DNA of 64,000 bases from Antedon mediterranea (Eukaryota; Animalia; Echinodermata): contig NC_092676.1 in assembly GCF_964355755.1 (NCBI RefSeq), positions 20,726,871 through 20,790,870 on the forward strand, in the 5' to 3' direction. Below, one piece after another: positions 1 through 58,880 of the stretch. The notes under the pieces were generated by a model. That model was not told where the DNA came from. It worked only from the letters and a program-made list of their open reading frames with translations, and made no database searches. Every line of letters starts with the position of its first letter. The first letter of the stretch is position 1. The position numbers were made by a program, and so were the translations under genes.

Positions 1-733
1 CACTTCAACTTGTGAAGGTGCGTCCAAAGAAACAAAATACAGTATAACAATAAAAAAGAGAAATAGCAATAATTATAATTGGTAAAATATTTAGATTTTA
101 ATCCGCGTTTTCCTCTCCATTGTTTAATAACCAATTAATACTAATAATAGGCTGAACATGTGGGACGCTGGTTTGGATCATTTGGAGCTAAGACTATTCG
201 TGAAAGAAATAAAATCGCGTCTGTACATTCATACACGTTTACATTTTTTTTTTTAATCTATGATACTGACAACAATTATATATTTTTATTTTAAAGAAGT
301 TAAAAACATTGTCGTAACATTGATGTTGTTATAAACTCAATAATCATAACTAAACATCTCCATCTATTATACAATACAAACCATACAGTGCAATACAAAA
401 TTAGTATAATTAGTTTTAATGTGTTATTGACCTTCATTGTTATCATGACTCATCTATTAAGCGATTCAACGAATAATGTGCACAAAATAGGACAACATTT
501 TGTATGCCTAATTTTATAATGATATTAAAATATAGGATATATTTTTTTACAAATAACGCTTTAATTTATTAACATTGATAATTATGGTACTATACGCCTG
601 TTGAAGAAGTAAAAAGTGAGTGAAAAAATATAAACTGGTCACATTTCTATACACTGACTTAGTGACTAAGTTAAATACTAAGCGGAAAACATCTAAGTAA
701 AACGATATCTAAACACTACAGCAACTAACACCA

Positions 734-2077
734 TTAATCTGAGTTTGCATGTTTTAGTGCATTCAAAATGTCGATTCGATAATCTCGTTTCCAACTTTCT
801 GCTGAGATGTTGCATATGTGTACAATGCATTCTATGCATTTTCCTTCGATTGATAGCTTTACGTCAAAACGTGTCGCAAAAGCATATCTATCCCCATTTG
901 TTTTCATGCGATAGTCCCAACCGTTACCGAGAAGAAAGTCTAATTGTCCAAAACTTTCTGGCGAATATTCTTCACGAAAGCAGTTACTGGCATTAAGACC
1001 AAATAACTTGGTATCTATGCCCTGTTCGTATAATATACTAAACCGCACTTGCCTTTTTTTGCTTGATAAACCGCGCTGTATCTGTTGGCGTATACACCTT
1101 CTTAATGTAGCTTTTCGCTCTTCATAAGTTGCCTTTGAAATATTAATAAGAGAATTGACTCGTTCTTCGGCTGCTTGAAGTGTGGCACGACGGCGTTCAG
1201 CCCACCTTCCGTTAATTTTTAGCTTAACAGGCTTGGGATTTGTTAGGACTTCGGTAAAGGATCCTACCATCAATAGGTTATATGTTCCCAATTTTCGAAG
1301 TTTGTAACCACGTCCCTCAACAATTCCGTCGTTATTATTGATATGTAACGATGTTAAAAAATGATAAATATCGTCGTCATCGGTTGGTAGAAATGATCCA
1401 ATTGAAACTAGTTCATCTTCTAAAACACATTGTGTAATTTCCTCGCTTTCTTTCGTAGTTCTTTGATGTGACAAATTTGCATTTTCCAACGTTGCTAGAT
1501 GTCGACTATGCTTATTTTTCATGGGTTTTCGTTTACTCTTTTTGTGTTTAGAGCTAGACACTTTTTGTGTTGATGATTGAACATCTTCTAGATTCGGATT
1601 AATATCTTCTTGGTATTTGTAACAACTTAGGACATCACAGTACCCAATAACGATGTGTTTGGTTTCATCACTAAAATCGTAAGATATTTCTAATATTTTA
1701 CGAAAGGGATCGTTGATAAGGACATTGCCCTCTTGTTGTTTCGATTCTAGGTTAAAATTGATTGTATCTCCTTCGACCAAATTCTCATGCTTTACCGTAC
1801 ATCTCATTGGCGCACTCAAGTCATGGACCTTTCTCTTCCGATTTCGCTTACCCAGTTTTTCCATCGGCGTTGTTTTTCGAATGTAATTTGGTAACAGAAA
1901 TGTGTCATGTTTTGACTGCCATCCTTGATAGTGAACACCAAAATGATTACCATCAGGTAATATGTTTATTCCAGTGATAGTTGCGGCTCTCCAAACACCA
2001 CATTCTTCATCCAATACCTCTACATTTTGACCTATGTAAAACTGTGCCATAGAATTCATGCCGCTCTCTTCTTCCAT
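734..2077 (-). CDS. Tudor/chromo-barrel domain protein (447 aa, single coding exon), likely transposon cargo
   Basis: N-terminus FYIGQNVEVLD...WRAATI...FGVHYQGWQSKHDTFL matches the Tudor-knot/chromo-barrel pattern (VHYxGW as in MRG15/PHF20). It is followed by basic NLS-like tracts and a C-terminal domain I cannot name (LDFLLGNGWDYR). Confidence 0.75.
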   Translation of the reverse strand: MEEESGMNSMAQFYIGQNVEVLDEECGVWRAATITGINILPDGNHFGVHYQGWQSKHDTFLLPNYIRKTTPMEKLGKRNRKRKVHDLSAPMRCTVKHENLVEGDTINFNLESKQQEGNVLINDPFRKILEISYDFSDETKHIVIGYCDVLSCYKYQEDINPNLEDVQSSTQKVSSSKHKKSKRKPMKNKHSRHLATLENANLSHQRTTKESEEITQCVLEDELVSIGSFLPTDDDDIYHFLTSLHINNNDGIVEGRGYKLRKLGTYNLLMVGSFTEVLTNPKPVKLKINGRWAERRRATLQAAEERVNSLINISKATYEERKATLRRCIRQQIQRGLSSKKRQVRFSILYEQGIDTKLFGLNASNCFREEYSPESFGQLDFLLGNGWDYRMKTNGDRYAFATRFDVKLSIEGKCIECIVHICNISAESWKRDYRIDILNALKHANSD

Positions 2078-2375
2078 TGTTTAGGTTCCTGTAAATAACA
2101 ATACAGAATAATAATGTTTGGGCAGGAGGATACTTTATAAAAACCCGCATTTATAACACCGTCCAATCAGAAAGCTTCCTGTCTACGGTAATGCGGTTAC
2201 CAAACAATGAGCTTATCACCTGATTAGGCCTACCTGACCGTGATGTAATCAAATGTGGCAATCCCAAGCGTTATAATGTATTTATTTAATATAAATTTAC
2301 AGTAATCAATGTAAGCCTACTAATCGACTTATGAAGAAAGCCGGGTAACGCAAAACTCACAAGATAGGAATATGT

Positions 2376-5300
2376 TTACACCTCGTTAACATTACGCCGA
2401 GCACGTTCGTTCCACACTCTTTGTTGGTCTTCTGGGCAATCTTTCCATAGTTGGCTAAGGGCTCTGTTTCTCTCAATAAAGTTTAGTTCTTGCTGATGAC
2501 GCATTACCTAATATTTAAATAAATTATAATTAATTATAATACCATATTGAAATACCTCTTAAATGTAAGTTGACAGTAACAATTAACGATTACAATAATT
2601 ATATAATAAAAAGCAGTACGCGTATTCAAGGAAGAAATATATTTCTGTATGTTATTAAATTCATAATATTTGTATAGCCTCATACCTAAGGCCATTTTAT
2701 GATTTTTTTTATTGAGTTTCCATTTTAAGTGCAATGAAATCGGTTCAGGAAAGAGTAAACATTGCATTTTTTTCCCCTGATCGGTTATAAACATAGAACT
2801 ACTTGTATTAATAATCATGTTATACCTCCGGAATGTTTTCTTGAACGAATAAGTTATATCCCGACAACCTTCTTTTTTTCACAGGGTTTGGTTTTCTATG
2901 TTTCCTTTTTATTTGGACATTTTGACAAATTTCTTGCATCGGTTGTCTTTGTTGACGTTCTTTTTTCTTTAACATTGTATATGCGCTGGCATCTTTGCTG
3001 TTAAACATAATAACATGATAATCAATTGGTTAAACATAATTATACTGTACGTGGAAAAGTTATCAGCCCGGGAATGTTGTTTAAAAAATGACAACCGACT
3101 CAGTATGCGTTTTGAAAATGTGTGTGTGTGTTATTCGAACCGTATGTTAACTTTTTAGAAAGGATAGAAAATTCAGATTTCAAGATCTGATTCATTCTGC
3201 TCTTAGATGGGTCGTTCCATTATTAAACAGAGGGTAAGAAATCTGAAATACGTTTAGGCCTACTTTAAAATATAGCACTATACCAGGGAAGAGTACGTGT
3301 AATTTCGATATTCTCTGATCTAATTATTTTTATGCTAAAGATAATATTTCTATTAATTAATTTCTTAGCTAATGTAGTAAATTTAATAATTAAATAAAAA
3401 CATTATTCAAATTATGCAAAAACCACCTTGTAATGCATACACTATTTAGGTTGTATTATTTCATAGAGATATTATAGTGAACTATAATATCTCTATGATT
3501 ATATATACTATTTAAGATATATACACTCTGATTAATAATGGAATGATCTATTGGAATGGATAGGTAAAAACCTTAATGAGAAAAAAACACCACTAACCTG
3601 TTATATTGTATAATGCTGCTGTCGGGTACTACCGACTGAATTGTTGTCAAAGGTGCATTCTGAAGTCTGGAAATATTCAATTTATAGTCTTCTAATGACG
3701 TAAAAGTACCCTTTTCAAGATTGTCCAAGATTCCATCACTTAAAATGTCCACACCTCTTCTAAAACATTCGGCCAATGTCGAGGCAACTTTTTTGGGCTC
3801 TCTGTCACATTCTGCTTGTGTTGTTATAACAATAAAATATGTAAGAGGAACATTATCTTTTGGGAGTCCCCTCCACCAATAGCTTCCACCATATTTACTG
3901 ATGATTTCTTTGATGATTTCGTGTTGTTTATACAAGCGTCCCACTATGATGATTGACATGCCTTCCAGAGCATTCGATGTATCTTGAACATTTTGAAGGG
4001 CTGCATTAGATTCATCGTAAATCCCTTGGTCAAGTTCATTGGTGGCATCCGTGTTGTGATCATTGTCCGGTTCGTTTAGTTCGGACTCATTTAGGTCATG
4101 TTCACCCGGATGGTCAGGATTCTCATCTCGATCGTCATACCCTTCAAGAGACATTCTGTTTTGCACGTACGTATTAAAGCGCTCCTGTGCGTCTACTGGA
4201 CACTCACGCATTCGGTGGTGGATCATCTGCCATTGCCATTCAAATATTTTCAGAATTGGATCTTGTTTGGATGATCCACCACCGCGAGTTGTATGTTGAT
4301 AGAACCTACACATGTCCATATAGTGAGAACGTTCCCCCTGTTCTGTAGACAGCCTCATAACGGAGTGAAATGGGTAACTTTGTAGCAACTGAGGGACAAC
4401 ATCGATGAACTTCATTTCATAACCTGTGAATACATTTCCATACTTGAAAAGGATCAAACGATGGAATTTATCGGCATGATTAGTGTATTTAGAAATTTGT
4501 TCATGTCCATGGCCCCACGAATAATCATCCACCGATACACTACCATTCTCTCGTCCTGGGAGAATAATTACAGACTCGTCTCTTAGCATCCTGTACATGT
4601 GAGCAAGATGGTGAAAAATTAGTTGTTGCAGAAGTTTTACACTTATAGATCTGGAAGGCAGATTTAGAATACGCTGAAGATCTACGGGAAGTAATCGCGA
4701 ATGAGGTGTGTCTGGTAAAACATTATCGAATATGTCCGGGAAAGGAACGACATCATATGAAAAAAAGTCAGTAATTGCCGGGTATACAATTAACTGTGCT
4801 GACGGTTTGTTTAAGGTGATCTGTTTAAGTTGGTCATCTTCAAACACTATGTGGAATCCCCCGTCTTTATTTCGGTGAACACCGCGAGCCTTTATATTGT
4901 TGACCAAATGTTGCAGTCGGACTTTGCGTAGAGCAACTCCATTAACTCCCGGAATTAACGACGTGATTCTAAATGGTAGAAATTGTGTTCGTAAAAAGAT
5001 GTATATAAAACACGCTTACTAAAAAAAGTATATCAACATAAATATCAAACACATTTTACACAGCTTTATCTCAGTTTTAAACATTAATTAATTCAATAAT
5101 AATATTGCAAATATTTGCGCGCAGTAGCGTCTCGTTTAAATTAACGCTTGCTTCTTGACGTGACGAATATGGACGCTAAAGCGTTACCGTATTTGTTGTC
5201 TACAATTGTTCAGATTAATTTACAAAATATTTCTAAATTTCTAGTGAAAATGGATGAAAATGTATACTATATTTTGAAGGTACTTACGTATGAATGTCTT

Positions 5301-7626
5301 GTATAACAAGTCGCAACTGGTGTTCAACAATTCGTGTTATACCATGGTCTATACAAATACCAAAGTGTTCAAGTGGCACATCTAACAGTCGATGTGGATG
5401 TACCCTCCCTACTCTTTTTCTTACATCTGATCTTAGTCCACTCTCCTCATCATAAAGCTTATTTTCCTCCTTGATTGTTTCAATATAAATATTGAATCCA
5501 TCGGCGGTTAGTGGTCCTATCTTACCTCCAAGCACAGCATCTTGAAATTTGGCATCCGACGATATAAATATTTTGTGTCCGTGCTCTTGCATGTGACAAA
5601 TCCAATCGTTTATATAATTATTTTTGTCATATCTTAAATTAGATTCGAGATTGGCCCTGTCGTCCCCAAAATAGAAAATTGCCACTCTCCAAAAATCTTT
5701 AGGGCTATGAAATCCTTTACCTTTTAGAGCCTGAACATTATTAATGTTCGTAAGGCCAAACACCGTTGATTGTCGCCTTCCCATTATACGAGCATCGCCA
5801 TATAATCGCCACCACTCTTCACCATCTACATAATGGTACACATACATTAATGCATCATGTAAAGAGTGAGGATCAATAAATATGCCACCAGGTAGAGAAG
5901 TGGGCTTCATGATCCGCTCGAATTCCGCTTTATACTTTTTCTTGAGCACACGCACTTTGTTATTTGCGGCAAATAATCCAGGTAGTCGCTTTCGGAGCCA
6001 CGTTAATGCCTCGACGACATTAGTTGTGTCCTCCAAAAATAGTAAATCGTGTTCATTTATTTGGAGTTGTTTAATTTCATCTCTACAATAGAAATTTAAA
6101 AAGTGAAAGCTCAGTAAGTTATAAATCTGCATCCAGGCACAGGATGGATTAAATGAATGGTTCAATTGTTAACGATGTTTTTAATCAATACGGTATTACT
6201 AAATAGACTACTTGTTGTAATTATACAAAATGTCTTACTTTACAATTTCATCAAAAAGAGATTGTGTGGCATGTTTGGATGATTTGCCCTTTCTAAGGAT
6301 TGTTACTAAATCTTCGGCAGAGAGTATTCCGTCCCATTCTTCATCTGTAGAAGCATTAGAGATGTCCCTATAGACATAAATAAACAGAATTCAATAAATC
6401 ACATTATTGGTCTAAAGTTCGCTTTTCCATTCCTGTCAGATTGTAAAATTTAACTTTAAAAATATCAAAAGAAAAAAATTGCCATTTTCATTTCAAACAA
6501 GTGAACGTCACGTGAGGATTCTATATATCTTAATAATGTGGTGTCATGCCCATGATAGTAATGAATTCTGTAATTATTGTTTTTCAATTTATAAATATTA
6601 AAATACTTACCAAGCTAGTGCATCTAATAGATCTGATTTATCCCCGCCGTGGATATTCGTTGCAATTTTCAATATTTCTTTTCTCTGATCTATATTTCTG
6701 CGGGAAATTCTATGGCCCAACTGTCTAGTTTTGTTTTCTTGTGGTCCATCACCGTTGCCAATTTCATTGTTGTACTGCCTAATCAGGTTGCTTGTTGATT
6801 TTAGTTTATTTTGTACGCGCTCATCTTGTATCATATCTGCGATAGGCATGGGATTGTTGACAACAGATGCGGTGCACTTTTCTATAATAAAGTCACGCAA
6901 TGTGTACAAATTTAACGTATATTCGTCAATATCATCGATGTACGTCTGCAACATAGCTTCCGTATCTCGAAGATGTCCACCACTTAAAATGAGAACGGTG
7001 AAGTACGAAACGCTAAGGTGGGTGCGTTGGCTTTTGTTTTGTGGTAGACTTTCATTGCGCACAACCAATCCGTTTTGATAAATATAATAATCGTACCGTT
7101 TCCATCCTCGATGTTTCTGTCCATTAAACATTCCTAAGAACTTCATAGCATCAGCTACAGCAACATAATAACTCCCTTCTCTTTCACACCCAGGTATATT
7201 ACATGGCCATCCCAGTTGCTCTGTTCCTCTGTACATATTGTTTGGATTATCTGACAGTCAACCCGAAAAAAGAAAGAAAATAAACTTACATTTTACCAGC
7301 TAATTACACTAACAATAACAATTAGGCTATATATTCTCTTTACTATGAAGAAAGTTACAGTACAGAACCCGAACAGTTCTGTAGGAAAATATTGAATTAG
7401 TTAATTAAACTCATACTATAAGGCCTAACAGAGTACTTGACATTAATCTGTAGTTCAGTAACATTAGTATAATAGGCCTAATAGATTTCACAGTAAATTA
7501 CTGACATCTCAGCATTATGTAAATTTAGCATATTGTTAACAGTGTAGGCCTATCTAAATTAGATAAAACGTATATAGTACAGTCTATCATAACTGTATTA
7601 AAATACAATTAAACTTACTTTGGCAT
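2376..7626 (-). CDS. Multi-exon RAG1/Transib-like DDE transposase with C-terminal BRCT-like and HMG-box domains (~1088 aa)
   Basis: GT-AG exons with compatible phases: 7626-7619, 7378-7359 (these two tentative), 7250-6611, 6367-6239, 6082-5288, 4968-3598, 2997-2826, 2507-2376; total 3267 nt, open. Motifs YGDAR, SSDAKFQDAVLG, CIDHGITRIVE, TGYEMKFIDVVP and STEQGERSH occur in RAG1-core order. LEGMSIIIVGRL...IISKYGG is BRCT-like. RRLSGYNLFVQE...LSQLWKDCPEDQQRVWNERA is an HMG box. Confidence 0.72.
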
Positions 7627-8340
7627 CTTTGTCTTGAATTAAATATAATGGTTGAGAAGTATTATAACGCGGCTTTCACAGACTTTCACTGGAAAGGACT
7701 GAAGAGAAGAGAATGTTCGCGCCAAAATTTGCAGGAGTGGTGTGAAGGTTATCTCAATGTACTGTACAGTACATTAGTCTTCGCCTTAGGGAGTTGTTTG
7801 CCTTGATTTTAAACACTTTTCAATATGTAATATACCCCCCTTTCTACATAGGCTTTTTATTTACTTAATTCATATACATAAAATACTAAGGCCAATGTAT
7901 TACATTTTGCTTGTAGTTTTTAACGACTATATAAGACGTCGATCTTCACAAATTCTCCCGGGCCTGATACCTCTTTACCTCCAGACGTGTATCTCACTTA
8001 TACGCCTTTGGTTTTTGTTTTGTTTATATTAAATTGTACCTTATTTCTTATGTTTGGTAGCCTTTTGAGTTTCGCCGCTCTTAATTATAAATTTTCTTTT
8101 TCACAAACTCTGTACATAGAAAAGAAAAGAGAAATAAATGTTCTGAAATTAAATGAATAAATGAACCAAAACAACCAACCAACCAACCGCCTCTCACCCC
8201 CTTTCCACCCTCCCACCCAAAGACCTCGCATTCGGGAGATTTTGATTTCGATACTTGAGTAAAAATACCGGTTATTTATATATTATATATTTATATTATT
8301 ATATATCCCATTACCCTAGAAACCACAACCCCTCTAACTA

Positions 8341-8735
8341 TTTGAAAAAAAGTGTGCTATCCATTTTAAAAAGTGTGCTATCCATTTGAAATAGCGTGCT
8401 ATCCATTTGAAGAAAGTGTGCTATCCATTTGAAATAGTGTGCTATCCATTTTAAAAAGTGTGCTATCCATTTGAAATAGCGTGCTATCCATTTGAAGAAA
8501 GTGTGCTATCCATTTGAAATAGCGTGCTATCCATTTGAAGAAAGTGTGCTATCCATTTGAAAAAGTGTGCTATCCATTTGAAATAGCGTGCTATCCATTT
8601 GAAATAGCGTGCTATCCATTTGAAAAAAGTGTGCTATCCATTTGAAATAGCGTGCTATCCATTTGAAAAAAGTGTGCTATCCATTTGAAGAAAGTGTGCT
8701 ATCCATTTGAAGAAAGTGTGCTATCCATTTGAAAA
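8341..8735. repeat. Tandem array of ~18 copies of a 21-22 bp unit (TTTGAAaaAGTGTGCTATCCA / TTTGAAATAGCGTGCTATCCA)
   Basis: Directly visible; invariant GTGCTATCCATTT core, with about three unit variants alternating. Confidence 0.97.
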
Positions 8736-9411
8736 ATTAAATTGATTAAATAATCACTGTATATAATTAAGTTTTCCAAGTTGCTTCTTAAATGTAATTT
8801 ATCTCAAATAGTAGGCTGCATGTTGATGAAGACGATACTGATAAAAAGCTCTTCTCTTCTCATTTTAATAGTTCTTTTGAAACAATGGCACGAAACTATA
8901 GTTTTTAAAGTGATTTATTTGATTTGATTTATTTCGAAATATCCATAAATATATAAATATACAATACAATTTGATAAAACAAGAGACGGCAAGTACCAAA
9001 TAATCTTACATAGGCCTATAGACAAAAGAAATGGATTTAACAAGGATAACACACAAAAAAAAAATTAATTAAACTTTTGAATGTTAATTGTGATGGTAAT
9101 TAATGAGTATTTATAAAGAAGTTTTTTGAAAGAAGAGTACCGGAAATAGTAAAATTACCTAATCAGTACTGATACAGAACATCCTTTGTATTAATTAGGG
9201 CTACGTCCCAGGGATCCCGAAATTAATAAGATAGACAATACAAACAACTGAATAAGAAAATAAACCGATTTTACGCATGACCGGATAATTGCGGTCTGTT
9301 TTTGATCTAAAGAAGTCGTTCATAACACGGTAAATGAATGTTAATTCCAATCAGGCCGCATTTTAACATGGATTGCATTGGTGCATTGTAGCTTAATCTA
9401 AGAACATCAAC

Positions 9412-10974
9412 ATGAATGTCTCCGATGGTAGTATACATGCAGAAATTTTAAAGAATTTTGTACCTGGAAAAAAGTTTGATAAAGTTCCAGTATCTGTTGT
9501 GAAAGATTTTCTGAGTCAAAAATACCCACATATTACTACAAATCAGAAACGCGGACGTCTTTTTAAACAGGCTTTTGCTAAAGTAGGCCATTCAATTCGA
9601 CGAATGAGACCTGGATCGAGGAAAGGAAGAAGTGAAACATGTTATTATTATGTTCGTAAGCAAGTCGTCATAACCGAAGATAATGATAACGTTGAGGATG
9701 AGCGACAATCTGCTGTAATGGAAACAGATGAGAAACAGGCAAAGGAAATAAATGAAAAAAGAAAAGCAGAATATCTGAAGCTTAGACTAAACCAAGAACA
9801 GGAGATGCGATGCCAAGCTATACAGGAATTGACCAAAATAAAACCAAATTCCTATATTCACATTCCACGAATAGACAGTCGTCATTTAGTTGATTTGAAG
9901 AAAACAATTGGGAATGGGTCTTTTGGATGTGTGCAGCTTTATCGGTATCGTAAAGATAATGTAGCTGTAAAAACATTTAAAAATTATGAAGGCCTCAGTG
10001 ATCACAAGCTTAGAGAGGCAATATTTCGAGAAGCAAATATGATGCTTTCGTTTATTCCTCATCCCAACATTGTCAAATTTTTAGGATATATTGTGTCTCA
10101 TTCAGCCAAGAACATATCATTAGTGACGTTGTTTGTTGACGGGAAAACACTAAGTTCACTTACTAAGACGGCAAGGAATCATCCTGAAAAACGCGGTAAG
10201 AACTGGTATTAATTTAATTTTTGTGGCTTTTATTTGATTTTCTTTACTATTATATGAAAACAATGCAAGTATAAATAACCTGATTTTTAATATTTTATTT
10301 TAATATAATTTAGGTCTACCCTGGACAGCAATGATGAAGCATGTAGCGGAGGGCTTGATTGCCCTTCACGAACAAAATATCATTCATAACGACCTAAAAG
10401 AAAACAACATTGTAATTAGAGAAGCAGACTACCGTGCAGTAATTATAGATTTAGGTATACCGTTTTAGGTTTGTGTTGTTTTAAATGATATAAATATTGT
10501 GTGCCTCTATACTACAGTAGGCTTATATCATGTTTTTAACAAAATATTGATAATAATGTCGTGGCAAATTTTCGACAAAAAGCCAATGAATGATGGGCGG
10601 GGGACGGGATGGCGACACAATTCAACCACTGACCAGATAATACTCGAATATTCTTTTTTTTGACAGGCAAATCGACATTCGCAGATAAACCTAAATGGAA
10701 TAAATACAGTTTAGGGTCTAAGCAATCTATTGAGGAATATAAGAAGAAATATCCGTGGATAGCGCCTGAATTAATTGAGGACAAGGTTCTCCCGTCTTCA
10801 TTTACCGATTGTTATTCCTTTGGTTTTGTCTGCAAATCGGTATATATACACACGCATTCCAATGACATTATACTTCAACAAATATGGGAAGCCACATATA
10901 GATTAATTAATGATCGTTATGATTTGTCCAGTATAATGCAATATTTTAATTCTGTTACCATCAACAATTGTTAA
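9412..10974 (+). CDS. Protein kinase (~410 aa, 3 exons) with RFX-like winged-helix N-terminus and coiled-coil linker
   Basis: Exons 9412-10195, 10314-10454 and 10667-10974 join in frame. Kinase motifs: IGNGSFGCV, VAVK, HPNIVKFLG, HNDLKENN, IDLG, WIAPE, DCYSFG. N-terminal GRLFKQAF...RRMRPGSRKGRSETCYYYVRK resembles the RFX GKLIRxVF...RRLGTRGxSKYHYYGIR segment. Confidence 0.85.
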
Positions 10975-12372
10975 CAGATAATGCATCTTTTTTGGGTGTA
11001 GGCTGTAACATGGATTAAATTCTTTAATCCATGGCTGTAATGAGCTAGCCTCAAGGTCTGTGTAAATTCTTCAAGTCAAAGGTCGCACACTGTCTTAACA
11101 TTATTTGTATTTAATTATTTCTCCATTCATTTATGAAACATTAAACCATTACTGTAAAGTTTATAAATAAAGATTTTTTTTATTTTTTGCTGTGGGAGAG
11201 TTGGTGTCTGAGAGAGACCAAATAAACTAAAAAATTGCCGTCCTCATTTTTTCGGAGCTTGTTTTATATTAACAATAAATGAACATGAACAAATATAGAA
11301 TCTTAATGGCTTTTTTTTTTTGGTTTGTTTTATATTTTATATCATATCAAACTTGTATCAGTGGACCCTCATGTGATTGTAGGCCTAAATCGATTGTGTA
11401 GACATACAAATAGCAGTATCTGAGCATGCGTAAATAATAATGTTCTTAATACCAGGGAGTTGTTATTAGTACAGTACTCGTCGTCCAAACCATTAATGAT
11501 AATAGCTACTTTGTAATAATAATTGATTGGTTTATCAGCAAAAAAGCATGAACCATGGAGGAAAAAATCAAGATCAAACGATGCCAGTGCACCTAAAAGT
11601 GACTCCAGTCAATTGCGAACATAGGCCAAGTTAATCACGGCGATGCCGGGGGTTTCCGCTATTTCTATGAAGTAGCCTAAACCTAGGCCTAAGCCTGCAT
11701 CTATCATCTTTATAAACTCCATTATTATTATTATTATTTGAAGAATTACATGCCTTGACCAGGGAATTATAAAATGTATAGGTCCATGTTTTGACGACAC
11801 ACAAAGTAGCACATTACAGTAAGATAATAATGACGTAAATACTATTAAGTAACTTTCTTGGCCGTCATTGGATAATTTTAGGAAGTACGTCCTACTCACT
11901 CAGTCACTGCTCTATTTACAAATGAAGGGTTCTAATTGGTCAGCTAACAGCACACTGCTTGAGGCAGTTTAAATTCTCCTTGAAACCGTCCATAAAACAC
12001 GCCATTACTCATACATCTGTCGTACCGCTAATGACCGAAAACCTCACTTTTTGGGGTTTTCAAACGTAACGCTATCCGGGGCTCCTGCGCCTAATGAATT
12101 TATTGTACCCGATTAAACCATATAAATTAAAGAAAAGACCATTTCAACGAGAAAACCATTCTCTGTCTGAAATTCATACATAGGTTTTTGTTAATTTTAA
12201 ATCTTATTTCCTTTTTTATAAAGAAAACTACAAAATGACATATTCAAAGTTTGATTGTATGCATCTTTAATTTTCATATTTTGGGATCTTTAAATTAACT
12301 ATAATTTAAAATGTTCAAATGTACCAAAGTACATGAACTTATATGCATTTTTTATTTGTAACTTAAACATAC

Positions 12373-13159
12373 CTTCTTTTTTGTATTTTAGTAACACTAG
12401 TTGGAATCCTGAGAGGAGCTAACAATGCAGTTGGTGACCCTGGGCTTGTTTCTTGGTTGGCTGTGTTCAGTGGATTTGCTTTGTATTGACTCTGTACATA
12501 GCTTGTTGCTACAGATAGCATCCCCAAAATGGCCGCAAGGACACAAACAAATATTATTGCACCAAATAACTCTAAAAATAGATACATCAAGAATAAGTAT
12601 TTTTGACATACATTACAACAAAACATCATTGAAACCATGGAGAGGTATAAAATATGTTGAAACCAAGCTTCCTGTATGTACATGGCTTGTTGCTACAGAA
12701 CATCCCCAAAAAGTCTGTTGTATTGTGTCACATTGTGATGTCATTATTGTTGCATGCTCTACAACTTCCTGGTAAGTAAATACAGTATGTAACTTTCTAT
12801 TGAGCCTAAGATTCTCAGTGCAATTCAGTATCGGAGAGAATATTATACAAATAATGAATGAGTTGAATGGGAAGAATATATAATGAGTTGAAATATTGAC
12901 TGTTATACTTTCAATGAATGGACATGTTCTAAATTAAACTTTTATTCAACTAACCCGCTGTTTTTTGGTACACGGAAAAAAATACTACGACCATTTAATA
13001 GTGCATATTATTGCATGCCATGTAACCCACAATCGTCAAATCAAATTACAGGAATTATTTAGGTGTTATATAATATATTTTACCTCCTGCTGTTTCTATC
13101 ATCCAACTCTTAAATAAGAATTGACCAACATCTGCTGAGAAGTAGAATGACATGTGCAT
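12373..13159 (-). CDS. Copper transporter, SLC31/CTR family (5' coding exons only)
   Basis: Exon 13159-13084 (MHMSFYFSADVGQFLFKSWMIETAG, typical CTR MxMxFYF...LF..W) splices in phase to exon 12571-12373 (ELFGAIIFVCVLAAILGMLSV..., TM1). No MxxxM/TM2-3 exon was found in the window. A probable upstream exon ends at the donor near 15427. Confidence 0.8.
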
Positions 13160-13189
13160 CTAAAAAAAAGAAAGAAAGTTAATAGTAAA

Positions 13190-13800
13190 AGACCCCTTCC
13201 CTGCAATTTTGGACGTTTTTTGGAAAATAATTAAACATTAAACCATGTCATTCCTTGTCTTAAATGTACGTTTTGTGGTAAATTATGATAAAAAGTGAGA
13301 AACAATGCACTACCTAAGTAGCTCGCGGCGATCGACCTCTCGTGGAGGGTCTTAGGCCTAGCCTAGCTAGGCTTAGTTTTGTAGGCCTAGCTGGTAAACA
13401 TCGGTAACGTACGAACATCGTACGCTACCTATATACCTAGCCTGACGTTGTATAGTTGCTGCATTAATTGTATTTCTATTTTTGCCAGACTCCGTTGATA
13501 CAAATTGGGGAAAACCCGGTATTTTCGCTGAAAAGTTAGGAGTCTTCCATTTGTTTTGGCCTCACGATCGATCGAAAAGTGGGCGAATTACAGGTGAAAA
13601 ACAAAAATATCAATCCGCGCGCAATGCATTTTGGGATTTATAGCGGGCCGCTATAATTATTAGAATCGACTTATTTTTCACATTTTTAACCGTTTAAAGA
13701 CGAAAAAAGTTATCGCAATAGGACCATATAGTATTATTTTTACATTAAATATAGTTTGTGATCTTAAAATTAGATCTAAAAAACGTAGGGAATGGGGCTT
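13190..13800. mobile_element. Non-autonomous DNA transposon (Kolobok-like, ~610 bp), copy 1
   Basis: Imperfect TIRs AGACCCCTTCCCTGCAATTTT / AAAACGTAGGGAATGGGGCT, flanked by TAAA/TTAA; near-identical to 14475-15100 in reverse orientation. Confidence 0.85.
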
Positions 13801-14474
13801 TAACTTACTGTACTCCATTCATGTTTCCGTACAATTACTGTACACTATATTTTGCATTTAATACCCACTTTTAACGTCAATCCTAACCATCAATTCACAA
13901 ATTTTGTGGTTGATGGTACAGTAAGTGACATGAAACAAACAAAAATTAACTTCATGTGGATATACAGAACCTTGGTAGAACATTTAAAGACAAGTATTAA
14001 TATAGGAGTAACAAAAATACTGTACTAAGCTTGAAACCTGCTTAATTGTAATGATATTGAATACAGTAATTAGATTACATTTATAATGAGTTCTGCACCA
14101 CGATGGTTTATTTTTGCTGGTAGTGGTACTACAAAAACAACTCAATAGCCACGTCTTATTTTAGAATTAGATCTACAGGTCAAATATTGTATATAGTTTT
14201 GATTTTCAAATTTATTATAAAAAATGGTACTATAAGACATACTGAAAGGAAACATTAAAACCCATTTTCTGTAACTGTTTTTTCATTGTAGGGAAATCAT
14301 TTTCTGAAATAAAATTAATCAATCAATAATAATATATTAATAATGATTATATAAAGGCAGATGAAACAAATAGCAACATTGGTTCTCTCATTACAAAAGT
14401 AACAACTTTACACTCACCATTTTTTGGTGGTGGTTCCTAAAAAGAAACTTTTGTAAAATTTTCTATTTATTTAA

Positions 14475-15100
14475 AGCCCCATTCCCTACGTTTTTTAGAT
14501 CTAATTTAAGATCACAAACTATATTTAATGTAAAAATAATACTATATGGTCCTATTGCGATAACTTTTTTCGTCTTTAAACGGTTAAAAATGTGAAAAAT
14601 AAATCGATTTTAATAATTATAGCGGCCCGCTATAAATCCCAAAATGCATTGCGCGCGGATTGATATTTTTGTTTTTCACCTGTAATTCGCCCACTTTTCG
14701 ATCGATCGTGAAGCCAAAACAAATGGAAGACTCCTAACTTTTCAGCGAAAATACCGGGTGTTCCCCAATTTGTATCAACGGAGTCTGGCAAAAATAGAAA
14801 GACAATTAATGCAGCAACTATACAACGTCAGGCTAGGTATATAGCTAGCGTACGATGTTCGTACGTTACCGTTGTTTACCAGCTAGGCCTACAAAACTAA
14901 GCCTAGCTAGGCTAGGCCTGAGACCGTCCGCGAGAGTTCGATCGCCGCGAGCTACTTAGGTAGTGCATTGTTTCTCACTTTTTATCATAATTTACCATAA
15001 AACGTACATTTAAGACAAGGAATGACATGGTTTAATGTTTTTAAAGTGATATATATGTATTATTTTCCAAAAAACGTCCAAAATTGCAGGGAAGGGGTCT
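14475..15100. mobile_element. Non-autonomous DNA transposon (Kolobok-like), copy 2, inverted relative to copy 1
   Basis: TTAA-AGCCCCATTCCCTACG...TGCAGGGAAGGGGTCT-TTAA; AG termini with TTAA target. Confidence 0.88.
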
Positions 15101-15544
15101 TTAACAAATTTAAATAGGCCAATAATATATTTAATTATCAAATGACACAGTTCCGTCGATGCACAGCATTGTAGAAGCATATTCTTTGTCCCGGCTATGT
15201 TGTCCAGAGTTGCGTAACGGTAACAGTCAATTGTAATCTTGGACCGGGCCCCTGTCTGCTTCTCTCTGGAAATGGGGGTACCTGGCCTAGATAGAGATAG
15301 GCCTAGGCCTAACTTCTAGGCCTAGGATCAGTTTTTTTAAACCGAAATTAGAACACAAGTATCAAACCAACCTAGTTGAAAACTACTGAAATTAAACTAT
15401 GTCATATAATCTAAATAAAGAACTCACGATTACAACATAGAATCCTTACGATTGCAATAAAATTAGATGTAAAACTGGGTCTACCCAGCAGCAACAAAAA
15501 CGCTGTTGTTGTTTTCTTCTGATCTTCAGCATGTGATGTTAAAT

Positions 15545-15556
15545 TGCGCATGCGTT
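15545..15556. promoter_or_regulatory. NRF1-like palindromic site in the probable CTR promoter
   Basis: TGCGCATGCG just upstream (minus-strand sense) of the presumed first CTR exon. Confidence 0.4.
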
Positions 15557-16126
15557 CAGAAAATTACGGACACCGAGTTCGTGTTTTCACAGGGGATGTT
15601 TGACATAAGATTTGACATAAAAGTACTGTAAGTATAATAATAATATAATTTTTAATAGGTATAGCATCTAGTAGACATATAACTAATAGTTAGGCATAAT
15701 ATGATTGAACAAATAAACCAGTTTTACCACAGTCTATGCTAAGAAGCTAGGCCAGGCCTAGCTAGCTAGGCCAGTCACTGTCGCAGAGGAAGAGTCCTGC
15801 TGGACGTTGTCTCGGCAGTGCTCGGTTAGTGCAGGCGCAGTCATCATCAGGCCTAGGCCTAGGCTAGAATTTATTATTATTATTCATAATAAAACTAGCA
15901 CAGATTATTAACTAGGCCTACCTATGCTATGCATAATAGACAATGGTAATTCACTCAAAATTATTTAGAATTTTATTTTGCTTTAATTAGGCCATAATTA
16001 TTATATTAATTAATATATTAATTATTATTAACATCATGGACCATGGTCTAGTTTGGATCCGATAGGCAGTGCAGAAACAGTTACTGTACAGTAGGTAGGA
16101 ATGGGCATACTGATGTAAGCGGAGTA

Positions 16127-18425
16127 TGGTCGAAGCGGCCGCCAACCAAAGCGGCCGCCAGTTTAATATCGTCATTTGTATGGAACGCCATGTGCGCTTT
16201 AATCTTTGATTGCCGTTGTCAACGCCATGGCCTATGGCGAGTTGAGTTACAGCTAAATAAATATAAGCCAACTCATGTACTATCAAATCTTTATATTTCT
16301 ATAATAATTAAGTTTGCCTGCCGATAAATCAATGTATATTTTATTTGTATTTACTATTAACTAATACATATATCGAAATATATTTTGCCGAACCTTTATA
16401 TCTCGTTTACATACTATTGAATCCTTATACAGTATTGCAATAATAATTTACGTATACGATATTGCCGAATCTTTATATCTCGTTTATATACTATTGAATC
16501 CTTATACAGTATTGCAATAATAATAATTTACGTACGGTATTGCCGAATCTTTATATCTCATTTACATACTATCGATTTTTATACAGTATTGCAATAATAA
16601 TTTACGTACGGTATTGCCGAATATTTATATCTCATTTGCATTTAACTATCGAATTTTATACAGTATTGCAATAATAATTTACGTACGGTATTGCCGAATA
16701 TTTAAATCTCATTTACATTTAACTATCGAATTTTATACAGTATGGCAATAATAATTTACGTACGGTATTGCCGAACCTTTATATCTCATTTACATACTAT
16801 CGAATTTTATACAGTATTGCATTAATAATTTACGTACGGTATTGCCGAATCTTTATATCTCGTTTACATACTATCGAATCTTTATACAGTATTGCAATAA
16901 TAATTTACGTACGGTATTGCCGAATATTTATATCTCGTTTATATACTATCGAATCTTTATACAGTATTGCATTAATAATTTACGTATACGGTATTGCCAA
17001 ATCTTTATATCTCGTTTACATACTATTGGATCTTTATACAGTATTGCAATAATAATTTACGTACGGTATTGCCGAATCTTTATATCTCATTTTTACATAC
17101 TATTGAATCTTTATACAATATTGCATTAATAATTTACGTACGGTATTGCCGAATCTTGATATCTCATTTGACATACTATCGAATCTTTATACAGTATTGC
17201 ATTAATAATTTACGTACGGTATTGCCGAATCTTTATATCTCGTTTACATACTATTGAATCTTTATACAGTATTGCATTAATAATTTACGTACGGTATTGC
17301 CGAATCTTTATATCTCATTTTTACATACTATCGAATCTTTATACAGTATTGCATTAATAATTTACGTACGGTATTGCCGAATCTTGATATCTCATTTACA
17401 GACTTAATCAAATCTTTATACAGTGTTGCATTAAATAATAACTTACGTACGGTATTGCCGAATATTTATATCTTGTTTACATACTATCGAATCTTTATAC
17501 AGTATTGCATTAATAATTTACGTACGGTATTGCCGAATATTTATATCTTGTTTACATACTATCGAATCTTTATACAGTATTGCAATAATAATTTACGTAC
17601 GGTATTGCCGAATATTTATATCTCATTGACATACTGTACTATCGAATCTTGGTTTTTATTATTAGTAATAGTGTGTGTTATACATTTAAGTGTTATTCCA
17701 TTGTAATACATTGTTTGTGTTTTCAATAAAGCAACATGGGACGCCCACCTAATGTGCAGCAGCACTATTGCTGGCCGTCAGTCGAGTTATTAGCAGAAAT
17801 TCGCGTAATTAATTACTGTATCAAACAGACACTTTCATCTTATTTTAGTATTTAAAACTCATTTTCAATTGATCAATATTTAAATATCTGAAGTAATAAA
17901 ATAGTGTAGGATATTAAATAAATTGCTGTCATCATGTTATTGTATTAAATTATGATTGCGAACACTACTATAGTTACTTTACTAATTAATTAATATACAA
18001 TAACAAATATTTTTAATTATTAATATATTTATATATTTTGATATACTTTATTGATTGGTTTATTTATATATAATTCCTAATAATTGGCTTATTATTATAT
18101 TATATTAATATACAATATAAACACCACAATGTATTTTATAGACTTTATTAAACATATGTATATCATTTAGAACAGTTAAAATAAGTAATCATCGATTCGC
18201 CATTTCGTTTAAAAGAACGTACGCGTATCACATTCAATCTGTAAAAAAAAAGAGAATAAATTACATAATAATGTAGATTGTTATTTACGTCCGAGGTAAA
18301 GAAAACCTGTCGAAACAATGACAATCAAAGATTACAAAACAACGACAATCAAAGCGCACACGGCGTTCCATACAGATTACCGTTATTGAACTAGCGGCCG
18401 CTTTAGTTGGCGGCCGCTTCGACCG
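16127..18425. mobile_element. Non-autonomous TIR element with TA target duplication (Tc1/mariner-pogo-like), ~2.3 kb
   Basis: TA-TGGTCGAAGCGGCCGCCAACCAAAGCGGCCGC... and ...GCGGCCGCTTTAGTTGGCGGCCGCTTCGACCG-TA; imperfect inverted match over ~90 bp. Confidence 0.85.
16380..17650. repeat. Minisatellite with ~79 bp unit, about 16 copies
   Basis: Unit TATTGCCGAATCTTTATATCTCGTTTACATACTATCGAATCTTTATACAGTATTGCATTAATAATTTACGTACGG repeated; explains the repetitive ORFs here. Confidence 0.96.
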
Positions 18426-18670
18426 TAATCCATGTAAGCCTGTATATATAATAAATTTAAGAGTGTGAATGAACATAATTATTATAATATTAATAGCAAT
18501 CTGCAAGTTTATAAACTTTTTTTGATTACAGGTAAAGTGCAATGAAGTTGATACCCGAAATGCTGACATCTAATTAATTTAACAACAATTTCGAGAGTTG
18601 GTGTGTCGCCAACACAAAATTCAAGAGGTCATAATTATTTTAACATACATGGTAGTCTGTTGAAATAAGT

Positions 18671-28714
<10,044 letters not shown>

Positions 28715-38973: not shown

Positions 38974-39438
38974 CAAGCTTTATATCAACATTTGATTTCG
39001 CCATGCAAACCTTCAAACAATATATTATGTAAAACCGTAACGAAAGTCTATATTAAATAAATAACCATGACATTACAAAACAATTCCACGGAGTATAACG
39101 TATGTACTTAAAGCATTGTTGACTTCCTTATCCAATTCAATTTTGGAGAAAATTCCTGAAATACTATATTCCTTATAGAAGTGTGATTGTATATAGTCAA
39201 CATCGACAGATGTGTGTGACGAAAATGTAAAGAGATCCTTATCGGAAAGTTTAATAACGCCTGAGGTTGAACATTGAAAAACATATGCGATATTATTGTG
39301 TGTGAGGAAAATTAAAAGCCATCTTTATCGGAAAAAACACATAGATATTATTGCATATAATATAATTATGTTGTTATTTTTTGTGTTACACACCAAGGCC
39401 CACTTATAATTTTTTTTAAATGTTTACACCCCACCCAC

Positions 39439-42400
39439 TCAAACAATTCTACATCTATCTGAAACTAAACGAATGGTTCGACTTTTATTTAATGCTGTTA
39501 AAAGTTCGTATTCGGCTGGCATGTGGTGATTGGTGGTATAATTCAGTGTCCTGTTGTCGTAGTAATGATGTTTTAACGGTTTGCCACTCGGAGATTTATA
39601 AAATGGATAAAAACCATATAACGAAACATATTGACACATTGACCCAGCTGCTGTATACATGATTAACCCCAGAGATGGGTTTCTTATTTTCCAAAATCTG
39701 AAAGAAAAGTCATTTGTTGTAGGCTATGAAGAAAATTATATTTATGCATGCATAATTTAATGTGCTGATGATGTCAATTTATTCCTGTTATCTTTAATTA
39801 TGTTCATTTTCAGTATGCATTATTATTATTATTTTACTCGTTGAACATTCTTGTAAGAAACGTTAAATCCCCAGCTCAAATCCACTGTCTTACAAAAACG
39901 GAAGTTAATGAAAGAATAGTAAGATTAAGATGATACTTACTTTGTAACTAGTGGTAGCATACCTCGGTACGAATATACAATTCTAACTGTTAAATTATTC
40001 TGTTTGATACCTGCTACAAGATTATGTGCGTAGCTTATATTCTTTTCTGCGTTCAATTTAGAAATCCATATATATGTGTCATTAAGCTCTTTAAACGTGT
40101 CGTATGAAGTTTTGTAGCAACTATTTGAAGTGTTTGTTAGACATATACTGCTTTCGATACTGGCGGCCCCATTGAGCACCATCATATCTATTTTACCACC
40201 AACGTCTTGTTCAAAACCAATAGTTTGTGCAAGATTTCCTCTAAAAACAAAGTCGTGTTCATCTATTTCACGTCCACAATTGCTGTTTAGTAGATTACCA
40301 GCACTGCCTACAACTGCACAGGATCCTTGCAGAGGAATACTGTCGATACCTTCTGGTAATTTTGTCATTCGTTTGTTCTGTTTGAAGCCATCTTTGTAAA
40401 TTAGTGTTAATAGAGACGGTTTAAATCCAGCCTTCTGAAGTCGTTTTCTTTAATAGAATACAAACTTATAAATTCTGGGCTTATAATTGATTTAAAAAAA
40501 CTCTAGACAGGCATGTTCGAATTCAGTATGAGGCATATGTATACTTTTTGTTCTATTTCGTGAGAACAAACCACTTTTATTTCATTCAAACCACCGTAAA
40601 TTTTACATGTAAAATCAGTATTCAAAAAAGTAATATAGCATATGCATACTAAAAACTCTCTAATATTATTATTATGAAAAACAATTAAGGAAGAATTTTA
40701 GCATTTGCCCTTTATATTTTTCAAATTTCCCTAAATTTAGACTTCGAATATGCCATTTTACAGTTTAATAAAGTCATTCCCACTTAAAATAGATGAAATA
40801 AACGGTTAAGTTTAACCAAAACCATAGTGTGACAGACAATTTGAATATTATTCGTTTAGTAATCATAATAATAATATTCTCTCTGAGCCAATATGCTGCT
40901 TTCATTGTATTTGTTTGTGTCATTATTATTAATGAATCCGTATCTTGTAAAAAGTACACCAAGATCATTGTATTATATTATACAACTTATATAGAAATTC
41001 AACAGTTTGTATTTATATACAATAAATGTTTCGTCACCAAATCTGATTTTAATTGGTGTAGAATTCTTTCAAGTCTATCTGAAAGAGTAAAGCTCTGTTT
41101 GGTATTTGCTATTTAAGCAGAGACCATGCATACATTTGTGGTGGCAGAAATTAGATGATCAAAAGAAGGCTGCAATAGGCGGGGTAGAAAAAGAAAATAG
41201 ACATATATAGTCAAGTTCTATTTGATATGATAACTAGGAAGGTATAATGCCACCGTGTATTATGATCAGTGAAATGATTACCGTATCCAGTAAAAACGAA
41301 AGCAAAACTTACCTCATATCTAATGCTTTGCTTTCTTTAATGTGATTAGTCAATACTTTCCTACAAACAAAATCATAGGTTAAAATTATAATGGATACAC
41401 ATAAACTAAATACTCTTTTGATAAGAAGTAATAACTAAGATTATGGTACTTATCGGAAAGTTTCGTTTTGGCAGCTCCCTACCAATTAATTTCATCCGGC
41501 AGTGTGCTAATTTTAAATTTTTTAAACCACGCTAAAGACTTCTTTTCGAAGTGTCTTAATTTACGGTTATTATACATTACATCATACATCTTAATGTTGA
41601 CATTTCCTACTTTTTCCAGCTTGCTTTGTTCGCTTATATAAATGCGACTCTTGTTTATATATATAAAAGTATCTCTTCGGAGATCCCGCCTGCGATTTTT
41701 TTTTTCGTAATTAAGTTGGGAACCCCCTTATGAAACGTCACAAAATAAACATGAATAATTCATCAGTTAAATTTTCTTGTTCCGTGTGCACCCAAGCGTA
41801 TAGCAACAAGAAGTGATTATACACAAGTGCGGTACGATTCTAGGCCTATCTCCGCTGTGGTTGCCGCGTGGGATTTCATAAAAGAATAGCGGCGTTTTGT
41901 CAGGGGCGGATCCAGGATTATTTTTGCGGGGGTGGGGGGGGGGGGGGGGGTGGCACACGCGATCGTAGAGAGAAAATGGGGAAAGCCCAGAAAAAAATGC
42001 ATTTTATGGTGTTCGAGATCACTAACGCACTCTGATTCGATCATCTGTAAAGGGTCTTGCACAACTCTTCACAGTTCCAAACTTCAGGGTGGCGAAAGTA
42101 TTTTTCCCAAAGACTTTCTCTGAAAATCCGAGAGAGGGCGTCATATTTCGTCCCATTGTGTAGGGGGAGCATTATGCATCTCTCTGCGCTCGCCTTTTGA
42201 ATGAACATTTTAATATGCTGCGCTTTCCGAATGAATTGCCGATTCTTACAAAGGGAGGATATCGCCTTGTTGTAGGCCTAACTACAGTACGTATACGCCT
42301 TTTTCACGAAACGGAAGACATCTTCGATCGATGACAAACAATGCCGTGCAACTAAGCGTAACCAACAGAAATAACATAACGTTTTCAGGGGATTTCAGGA

Positions 42401-57300: not shown

Positions 57301-58880
57301 AAAGCACATTAATGAAATTGATTCTCATAAGGCTTCAGGTAATGATGGTCTAAGTAATATTGTTTTGTCTTTAGCTGCCAAACCTCTTTCTTTCCCTTGT
57401 AAAATTTTATTTGAAAGATGCATTTCTGAGAAACGTTTTCCGATAAAATGGAAGCAAGCTAACGTGTGCCCTATCTTTAAAGCTGGTTCTAAATCTGATG
57501 TACGGAATTATAGACCGGTTTCATTGTTGCCAACTATTTCTATTTGAAAAAATTGTTCACGACCAAATTTTTAAACATATATCACCAGTTATTAGTGACC
57601 ATCAACACGGATTTTACCCAGGGAGGTCTTGTGAAACAAATTTGTCTGTTCTGTTGTCACATGCGTATGACGCAATAAATGCAAAAGGGCAATGCGAAGT
57701 TGTATATACAGACATGGCTAAAGCCTTTGACAGGGTCTCCCATAAGTTACTCTTGTTCAAACTACAACAATTTGGTCTAAATCACGATTTAATTTTATTT
57801 TTTACAAGTTATTTATCGGACAGGTTTCAGAGAGTCACTTTTGATGGTAACACGTCTGAATGGCTTCCAGTTTTATCTGGCGTGCCTCAGGGGTCGATTT
57901 TTCCTTTGTTCCTCGTCATTCTAATGTTCTTATGTTTGCTGACGATATTAAATTATTTAAGTCTATACAAACCTTAAATGATATGTTGTTGTTACAAGAA
58001 GACGTTGACAGACTCATTCACTGGTGCGACACTTGGAATATGTCAGTCAATGCCTCCAAATGCAAATCAATGTCTTTTACTCTTAAGAAAAAACCCATCT
58101 ATTTTGACTTTTATATTAAGAATATTATACTTGAAAGAGTCTCTGTTCACAAAGACCTTGGTATTTTTTTAGATAGTTCATTAACTTTCTGTAAACATAT
58201 TGATTTTATAGTCTCTAAATGCAATAGACTTTTGGGTTTTCTTTGGAGACATTGCAGACATATTAACGATAAAAAGGCATTAGTTATTTTATACAAATCT
58301 TTAGTTAGGTCGAATCTTGAATTCTGCAGTGTTATTTTTAACTCTATTTCTCTTGCCTAGTCTTCTAGATTACAAAGTGTTCAGAACAAGTTTTGTCGAT
58401 TTTATGTGCGTAAATTTGGTTCTATTAGCAAAGACGTTCTTATTAATTTAGCGGGTAGGCGTAAGTTATTTGATTTAATTTTTCTTTTTAAGGCTGTGAA
58501 CTCAATTTTCCATGGTAATTTTGAAGTGTACTTTCCTATTTCTGTTCCACAATATCAATTGCGTAATCCTGCTTTATTTTCTATATCAAGAGGGAGGGTA
58601 AATATTACTAAAAATGGTTTTGTTAATCGTTTGCCTAAGTTATACCACTCACTATGAAAAATTGATGGATCTGTTGATGTTTTTTTTTTATTCCCTTGCT
58701 TGTTTCCGTCACAAGGTTTTGTCTAATGTCAGTAATATTTAAATGTTGTCTTGTTATCTATTGATTTTTGCTTGTATATAATATGTTATATTTTACGACT
58801 TTCAACCCTGTTAATGGTGACGTTTGGTCACTGTAGGGTGATGATGAAATAAAAAAAAAAAATAAAAAAAAAAAAAACAC
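54369..58880 (+). mobile_element. Frameshifted LINE (CR1/L2 group) with 2A-like peptide
   Basis: APE (LTETW, GGGV, YRPP, GDFN, SDH) and RT (YRPVSLL, DMAKAFD, GVPQGS, FADD) split across frames 55555-58657; 3' hairpin 58806-58840; poly(A) to ~58877; possible TSD GTAAAATACAGT at 54357-54368 and 58882-58893. The 5' boundary is tentative. Confidence 0.9.
55246..55511. mobile_element. MITE inserted upstream of the LINE ORF
   Basis: TAGAGAGGTTTCGCAAC..TACGAATAC / GTATTCGTA..GTTGTGAAACCTCCCTA inverted ends; partial tandem duplicate at ~55190-55245. Confidence 0.7.

Follow-up and report, generated by a model that had tools for sequence, protein, structure and literature searches.

The window considered here is a stretch of 64,000 nucleotides from the echinoderm Antedon mediterranea (NCBI RefSeq assembly GCF_964355755.1, contig NC_092676.1, positions 20,726,871 to 20,790,870 of the forward strand), which carries at 2376-7236, on the minus strand, an uninterrupted, stop-free six-exon gene for a protein of 1074 residues. 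This gene quite probably encodes the transposase of cut-and-paste transposons that have a RAG1/Transib fold, carry two genes between inverted repeats, lack the zinc site and form an undescribed lineage. The gene for this predicted RAG1-type enzyme is intact, its two aspartates, histidine and glutamate (D/D/H/E) are conserved in the family, the CxxC and Hx3-4H motifs of the zinc site are lacking, the protein ends in a BRCT and an HMG-box-like domain, and a gene with a Tudor-type domain recurs as its neighbour. It seems likely that the zinc site present in the known relatives was lost in this lineage, and that the protein works like RAG1 and Transib, yet lies outside the signatures of Transib, of the RAG-like (RAGL) elements and of the CMCT clade (EnSpm/CACTA, Mirage, Chapaev, Plavaka, ESTA and Lanisha; PMC12730594).

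The putative transposase gene and its family

The window DNA is AT-rich, intron-bearing and of animal type, and the five predicted introns of the transposase gene all run from GT to AG. A homologue annotated independently by NCBI in another crinoid, Anneissia japonica (XP_033095249.1, hereafter P0001), follows the same frames over exons 1-5 with 53-72% identity; exon 6 is based on splice signals and the family alignment, and the P0001 annotation diverges there and gives no confirmation. The features of the gene and of its partner gene are as follows (fractions are family alignment rows).

6611-7236, minus strand: exon 1 of the transposase gene, with the ATG at 7236
6239-6367, minus strand: exon 2, GT..AG and in frame, 72% identical to P0001
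5288-6082, minus strand: exon 3, in which the RNase H-like core begins and which carries both aspartates
5794-5796, minus strand: D348, putative first catalytic aspartate (67/70)
5554-5556, minus strand: D428, putative second catalytic aspartate, at a strand end and before a helix (68/71)
5344-5346, minus strand: H498 of the [C/D]xxH motif (55/57)
3598-4968, minus strand: exon 4, with the helical insertion domain, the putative catalytic glutamate, an acidic linker and the BRCT domain
4332-4334, minus strand: E729, putative third catalytic residue, in an ExxE motif (86/86); its partner glutamate, E726, is at 4343-4341
3670-3980, minus strand: BRCT domain, bounds approximate, from residues 808-911 of the P0001 model
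2826-2997, minus strand: exon 5, with a basic linker and the start of the HMG-box-like domain
2376-2507, minus strand: exon 6, with the remainder of the HMG-box-like domain and the stop codon at 2378-2376
734-2077, minus strand: partner gene, a single open reading frame of 447 residues, with a Tudor/chromo barrel, two more small beta domains and an alpha/beta C-terminal domain

An earlier note on this DNA had proposed, from the letters alone, a RAG1/Transib-like catalytic triad hidden across two exons at 4300-5810. The motifs it quoted are all present where it placed them (the Asp of YGDAR at 5796-5794, the Asp of SSDAKF at 5556-5554, the His of CIDHG at 5346-5344 and the second Glu of TEQGER at 4334-4332), and the triad is indeed spread over two exons, with the aspartates in exon 3 and the glutamate in exon 4, joined in frame over a GT..AG intron at 5287-4969. 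The proposed region nevertheless spans just the middle of the gene, and the stretch that had been matched to RAG1 HKTLAH reads YEMKFIDV, which has neither histidine.

A profile search of 1.84 billion representatives returned 317 relatives at E≤0.001 and 71 at E≤1e-30 (the best 150 being listed). When 154 stored sequences were aligned to the core profile, 151 proteins yielded 155 rows, many of which are fragmentary; the rows that cover a column serve as its denominator throughout. D348, D428 and E729 rank with the best-conserved columns of the family, and the earlier suggestion that all three acidic residues are retained holds well beyond chance. E726 is kept in 85/88 rows, the ExxE motif in 83/86, [CD]xxH in 52/56 and HxxxRxxE in 51/56, while in the window protein 80 residues separate the two aspartates and a further 70 lead to H498, which by its position and motif is the likely counterpart of the RAG1 active-site residue H795.

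Around this core, residues 1-130 form a small N-terminal domain common within the family (an iterative search found it in 26 of the 155 stored proteins), for which Pfam gives matches at E>0.1 only and no name. The predicted domain at model residues 808-911 matches the MDC1 BRCT domain (Z 11.6, root-mean-square deviation (rmsd) 2.3, 93 residues aligned), and at E≤10 Pfam BRCT_2 is seen in 20 of the 27 members of the family that were examined, with 3.4e-9 as the best value; for the HMG-box-like domain, the top match of the family profile in the PDB is the HMG box of TFAM (E 2.3e-5). An IQ-like helix follows the core in nine of the 27 members, and the long members P0007, P0032 and P0035 have an N-terminal ubiquitin-like domain (E 7.5e-9) and weak ubiquitin/SUMO-protease-like domains.

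When 24 relatives were checked, clusters with a named source came from Anneissia, the sea cucumber Holothuria leucospilota and the hemichordate Glandiceps talaboti, and the annotations read uncharacterized, hypothetical or 'BRCT domain-containing'. The within-family tree was made by a quick method with no outgroup. None of 95 pattern matches in viral contigs and none of 19 in bacterial and archaeal genomes proved to be relatives, negatives that are weak because the exact peptide patterns came from one subgroup, and BFVD gave no match at E≤0.001.

Predicted fold and the place of the zinc site

An AlphaFold2 model of P0001, built from 89 alignment rows, reached a mean predicted local distance difference test score (pLDDT) of 83 and a predicted template modelling score (pTM) of 0.73. 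It shows an RNase H core with a large helical insertion, as in RAG1 and Transib: the first aspartate (D345 in the model) lies in strand 339-349, the first of a three-strand meander, the second (D425) stands between strand 419-424 and helix 426-433, and the putative catalytic glutamate (E726 in the model) is in helix 723-739, after the long insertion. In Foldseek, the 39 listed of 49 matches at E≤0.001 are all RAG1, BbRAG1L or HzTransib (best 2.7e-9), and a structure search of 48,161 representatives placed RAG1 on top (Z 20.4), with the P element at 13.1, Hermes at 8.1 and Tn5 at 7.2. Together with the D/D/E conservation, these matches support a core of the RAG1/Transib type. In VIA, over all conformers, model residues 269-774 align with residues 478-1008 of mouse RAG1 (Z 21.2, rmsd 3.9, 408 residues), while the HzTransib hairpin complex gives Z 19.5 (rmsd 4.3, 389 residues) and BbRAG1L Z 19.2. 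It also favours the match that the end of the aligned range comes 48 residues after E726 of the model and 46 after E962 of RAG1. With such similar scores and a sequence identity of 11-12% in the matches to all three, the predicted protein appears about equally distant from RAG1 and Transib; a closer kinship with RAG1, as suggested by the search of representatives, was dropped once the closed HzTransib form had reached Z 19.5.

Sequence searches fall short of this resemblance. Pfam searches with individual exons yielded no match in the core, phmmer with P0001 against the PDB returned no matches, and the ESM Atlas offered no usable feature match for exon 3 or for the partner, whose structure rows had a template modelling score by query of ≤0.34. 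No THAP, BED or hAT dimerization domain is among the Pfam matches of the 27 members.

The earlier note had left the superfamily uncertain between Transib, Chapaev and others, and it is the zinc site that sets the protein apart from the families so named. The C(2)C and H(3-4)H pairs are common to all listed CMCT lineages, which have ends of the form 5'-CA..TG-3' (PMC12730594), and the four zinc ligands are highly conserved in RAG1L, according to PMC7204232. In the present family, C(2)C after the second aspartate occurs in 0/68 rows (the window reads FNIYIE there) and H(3-4)H before the glutamate in 0/79, and the place of the ligands is taken by conserved Y700 (78/79), K703 (77/86) and D706 (83/86). 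In sequence, then, the family is without the zinc ligands by which the RAG1/Transib/CACTA clade is defined. As the signature that these ligands form in Transib, RAG1 and Chapaev is missing, the protein, while of the RAG1/Transib type in its predicted core, belongs to none of these named families.

Other family marks point the same way. The distance from the second aspartate to the glutamate (D2-E) is 301 residues in the window protein and 290-309 in all 28 long rows, as against 206-214 in Transib, 253 in RAG1 and 325 in hAT (PMC1131882). Relatives have ends that start CAT and not the CAC that resembles a recombination signal sequence in Transib, whereas the CA..TG termini of the CMCT clade are present in them: the four ends seen in three metagenome loci (L010, L011 and L016) start CATTAC, with an uncertainty of one base. 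The Cx2Cx3GHx4C tail and N-terminal zinc fingers of RAGL (PMC7204232) are absent from the 1074-residue protein. As for KDZ, which the earlier note had listed with hAT for comparison, no KDZ Pfam family is among the matches of the 27 members and none is among the listed structure matches, while an HMG box alone is not decisive; hAT (Hermes) and the P element score well under RAG1 and Transib. We know of no solved KDZ structure with which to compare.

Set beside RAG1 and RAG1L of the RAGL elements (ProtoRAG; PDB 9jpu, 4wwx and 6b40), the family is alike in a predicted fold whose match begins in the pre-RNase H region, reaches the C-terminal domain and takes in about 408 residues, in the D, D, H, E order, in the long helical insertion, in ExxE and in the two-gene layout, which is convergent in L010/L011. 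It is unlike them in lacking the ZnC2/ZnH2 ligands and a RING/zinc-finger N-terminus, in carrying a BRCT domain and an HMG-like tail instead, in a Tudor-type partner where RAGL has a kelch propeller with a PHD finger, and in near-symmetric ends. From the CMCT clade, with which it shares an RAG1-related DDE core and the CA..TG ends, it is set apart by published motifs and not by direct comparison of transposases. Full-text literature searches, which took in PMC9435367 and PMC10462144, brought up no description of such a family, although Repbase, Dfam and most subscription journals, which lay outside the search, may hold members; 10.64898/2026.08.26.747230 deals with a canonical Drosophila Transib.

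Partner gene, element ends and rival explanations

The partner gene lies 300 base pairs (bp) downstream of the transposase gene in the same orientation. Residues 5-65 of its predicted product form a chromo/Tudor barrel (Z 10-11; MRG15 best at 11.2) that also matches UHRF1, SETDB1 and MBT (Pfam Agenet, E 3e-4), residues 95-154 a second barrel (Z 8.0) and residues 205-273 a further beta domain (Z 7.2), and the remaining ~150 residues are helical with a small sheet. The barrels and the beta domain thus fill most of the protein and the remainder is too short for the six-bladed kelch propeller of RAG2L, so that the partner, as modelled, is not RAG2-like. A tryptophan, a Tyr/Phe, a second tryptophan and an aspartate are kept in three aligned copies, and these we take to be the residues of a possible aromatic cage. 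Within the larger models, neither the C-terminal domain of the partner nor the N-terminal domain of the transposase was assigned a fold, which gives no evidence for a new fold; the profiles of the two proteins showed no relation to each other. A complex prediction of core residues 240-790 with the partner, in which alignments were not used, scored 0.01 and is no evidence either way.

The linkage of the two genes recurs in three independent loci among the 22 metagenome loci of the family that were examined: L008 (in tandem, tblastn E 5.5e-16), L010/L011 (convergent, one element, 2e-11) and L003 (profile E 1e-9). In addition, a Holothuria gene model (P0073) merges partner and transposase (2.8e-12). 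In 3315 candidates the partner matched just one other protein, from Anneissia (52% identity), and the Anneissia homologues of the two genes are apparently linked (the longest contig of each has 169,811 bases). L003 (1-13152) has ends that overlap by an identical 69 bp, with the transposase frame crossing the join and the partner between 7006 and 10758, and is therefore either circular, arrayed in tandem or looped by the assembly. Just ahead of its transposase frame, 40 bp of the partner start recur in inverted orientation.

The ends of the element are seen best in L010, where both genes stand between 41-bp inverted repeats (791-831 and 10029-10069) that are identical at 38 of 41 positions (they score 71, where none of 30 shuffles exceeded 34), the whole element measuring 9,279 bp. 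L011 is 99.8% identical to L010 over 7.7 kb and, past the end that the two share, runs into other flanking DNA. A related end occurs in L016; in all four ends of these loci the similarity begins at CATTAC. The four different gene models of the family in H. leucospilota likewise count for mobility. In L016 (1745-2260), the element end at 2207 falls inside a reading frame that encodes the C-terminal domain of a helicase (Pfam E 1.8e-12) and interrupts it, so that this element was probably inserted into another. No inverted-repeat pair was found within the available DNA of L007 and L016.

When contigs from three runs of the window's own sample were compared over 1-8200, the intact copy was covered by single contigs with no differences. 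Beside it are relatives of ~90% identity that are internally deleted and differ at 46 places, 40 of which are listed; the 31 listed coding differences comprise 7 synonymous and 24 non-synonymous ones, including a stop and E729K, and these relatives are dead members of the family. With its intact frame, and although no terminal repeats were found around it, the window copy may encode an active enzyme; one of its ends may lie left of position 1, because the partner gene stops just 0.7 kb from the window edge.

Several observations weigh against the proposal of an undescribed zinc-less transposon lineage and temper it. The protein that was folded is the homologue P0001 (74% identical in the core) and not the window protein, and the residue equivalences to RAG1 were derived from the topology and the ranges aligned rather than by superposing the structures. 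No RAG1 or Transib family of Pfam was reached by any of the 27 members at E≤10, and no RAG1 or Transib chain appeared among the 43 matches of the family profile to the PDB. As RAG1 and Transib are, to our knowledge, the sole members of their clade with solved structures, the fold match leaves Chapaev, EnSpm, ESTA, Plavaka and Lanisha unranked. The tail domains of the window protein itself score under the curated cut-offs of Pfam (BRCT, E 0.11; HMG_box_2 in exon 5, E 0.033; exon 6, E 0.06-0.08). The partner model is weak overall (pLDDT 59.9, pTM 0.31, five rows), its first domain being confident. Of the 22 loci, 18 gave no partner match; the majority of these are short, though L001, L002, L007 and L016 reach 6-9 kb. 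Around the window copy, no inverted-repeat pair rose above shuffles (1-13200; 1-736 against 7300-18600), and no target-site duplication, which has 5 bp in Transib and 7-8 bp in hAT and the P element, was seen at L010, the sole locus with both ends, where the assembly may have joined two insertion sites.

The missing ends of the window copy could also mean that the family is mobile elsewhere while the two genes here, with their counterparts in Anneissia, were domesticated as a pair, became fixed in crinoids and serve the host. Both frames are intact, they keep 74% (core) and 52% identity to Anneissia proteins that apparently share a contig, and the intact copy occurs free of differences where the other copies seen have decayed. 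Such domestication is nonetheless unlikely, as deletion and decay of the relatives in one and the same sample are what a transposon family typically shows, inverted repeats bound the relatives, and the missing element end may simply be outside the window.

If the gene is indeed that of a transposon, it could still be a very divergent Transib (subgroup I), or a member of another catalogued CMCT family, that lost its zinc ligands secondarily, in which case no new lineage is needed. In favour of this are the HzTransib match (PDB 6pqx and 6pqn), which comes near that of RAG1, and the CA..TG ends, which are as in the clade (PMC12730594). This is decidedly unlikely, given that both zinc pairs, common to all the listed lineages, are missing in every row, that SxxCxxC is lacking, that D2-E is ~300 residues long, that the end reads CAT, and that the identity of 11-12% to both compares with a mean of 26% between RAG1L and Transib (PMC9435367). 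Moreover, the proteins of the family have 1000-1800 residues with extra domains and are joined by a second gene, in an element of 9.3 kb versus 3-4 kb for Transib. HxxxRxxE (above) presumably resembles the Transib histidine motif, which also speaks for a divergent Transib. Kinship with the P element, hAT or Kolobok, which combine a C/D(2)H motif and a helical insertion with no C2H2 zinc site, would account for the [CD]xxH motif and for a D2-E distance near that of hAT (PMC1131882). The P element transposase (PDB 6p5a) does share the RNase H core and the insertion (rmsd 5.2, 308 residues aligned), Hermes matches as well, and CA ends are, we assume, another trait that the P element has in common with the family. 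It is highly improbable all the same, with RAG1 and Transib 6-8 Z units higher and 80-100 more residues aligned, a Glu motif that differs from that of the P element and fits the EGNE motif of RAG1 (RAG1 itself having DxxH, in IDALH, at the histidine), and no THAP, BED or hAT dimerization domain.

Proposed mechanism and other features of the window

For the proposed zinc-less lineage, a mechanism can be sketched by analogy with what we take to be RAG1/Transib chemistry. The enzyme would pair both CA..TG ends and nick each of them by means of D348, D428, E729 and two metal ions; the second strand would then presumably be opened via a hairpin on the flanking DNA, aided by H498, and the 3' ends would be joined to the target. 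Y700, K703 and D706 may hold the insertion domain instead of zinc. More speculatively, the built-in HMG box could bend the end DNA, which is the role of host HMGB1 for RAG (HMGB1 is bound to RAG in PDB entries among the matches), the BRCT domain could contact DNA ends or break-repair proteins, and the partner could read methylated histones and so steer or license transposition as the PHD finger of RAG2 does, though it is unrelated to RAG2.

Taken further, this leads to the tentative idea of a third branch beside Transib and RAGL, invisible to sequence, that would have arrived independently at the design of RAG, with a zinc-free enzyme, its own HMG box, its own BRCT link to repair and a Tudor histone reader in the part of RAG2, the pairing being sometimes convergent between inverted repeats. 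If so, the zinc site would be dispensable for the fold and pairing with a chromatin reader would have evolved more than once. RAG1 is regarded as derived from Transib, and a C2H2 zinc site as the hallmark of the entire clade; a widespread zinc-less lineage in animals, with the same fold at 11% identity, would point to a wider family behind the V(D)J recombinase, part of which sequence-based surveys miss. The intact gene pair and the complete 9.3-kb relative with defined ends open the questions of zinc, HMGB1 and chromatin targeting to direct test.

Next to the transposase gene, and divergent from it, is an intact three-exon protein kinase gene (9412-10974, plus strand; 410 residues, with HNDLKENN, DLG and APE), the N-terminal region of which presumably resembles an RFX-type winged helix. 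It may be cargo or a separate mobile gene, and was left out as a third gene of the element because no homologue occurs in any of the 22 loci. A tandem array of 21-22-bp units (8340-8740) lies between transposase and kinase. Further on, a non-coding element at 13185-15105, whose very long arms in inverted orientation extend over 536 bp at 98% and another 47 bp, is probably a non-autonomous foldback transposon, and at 16121-18431 a pair of 51-bp inverted repeats encloses a 77-bp tandem array. The nearest evident host gene is a multi-exon kinase gene that starts at about 18678 on the plus strand, the exons of which read, as far as we can name them, like CDK8/CDK19. By eye, non-LTR (long terminal repeat) retrotransposon-like frames with endonuclease and reverse transcriptase (one with a Penelope-like end) are found at 23337-26294, 50009-50776 and 55501-58360, and three duplicated segments at 39400-41700, 47700-49900 and 61700-63100 carry sialyltransferase-like exons.

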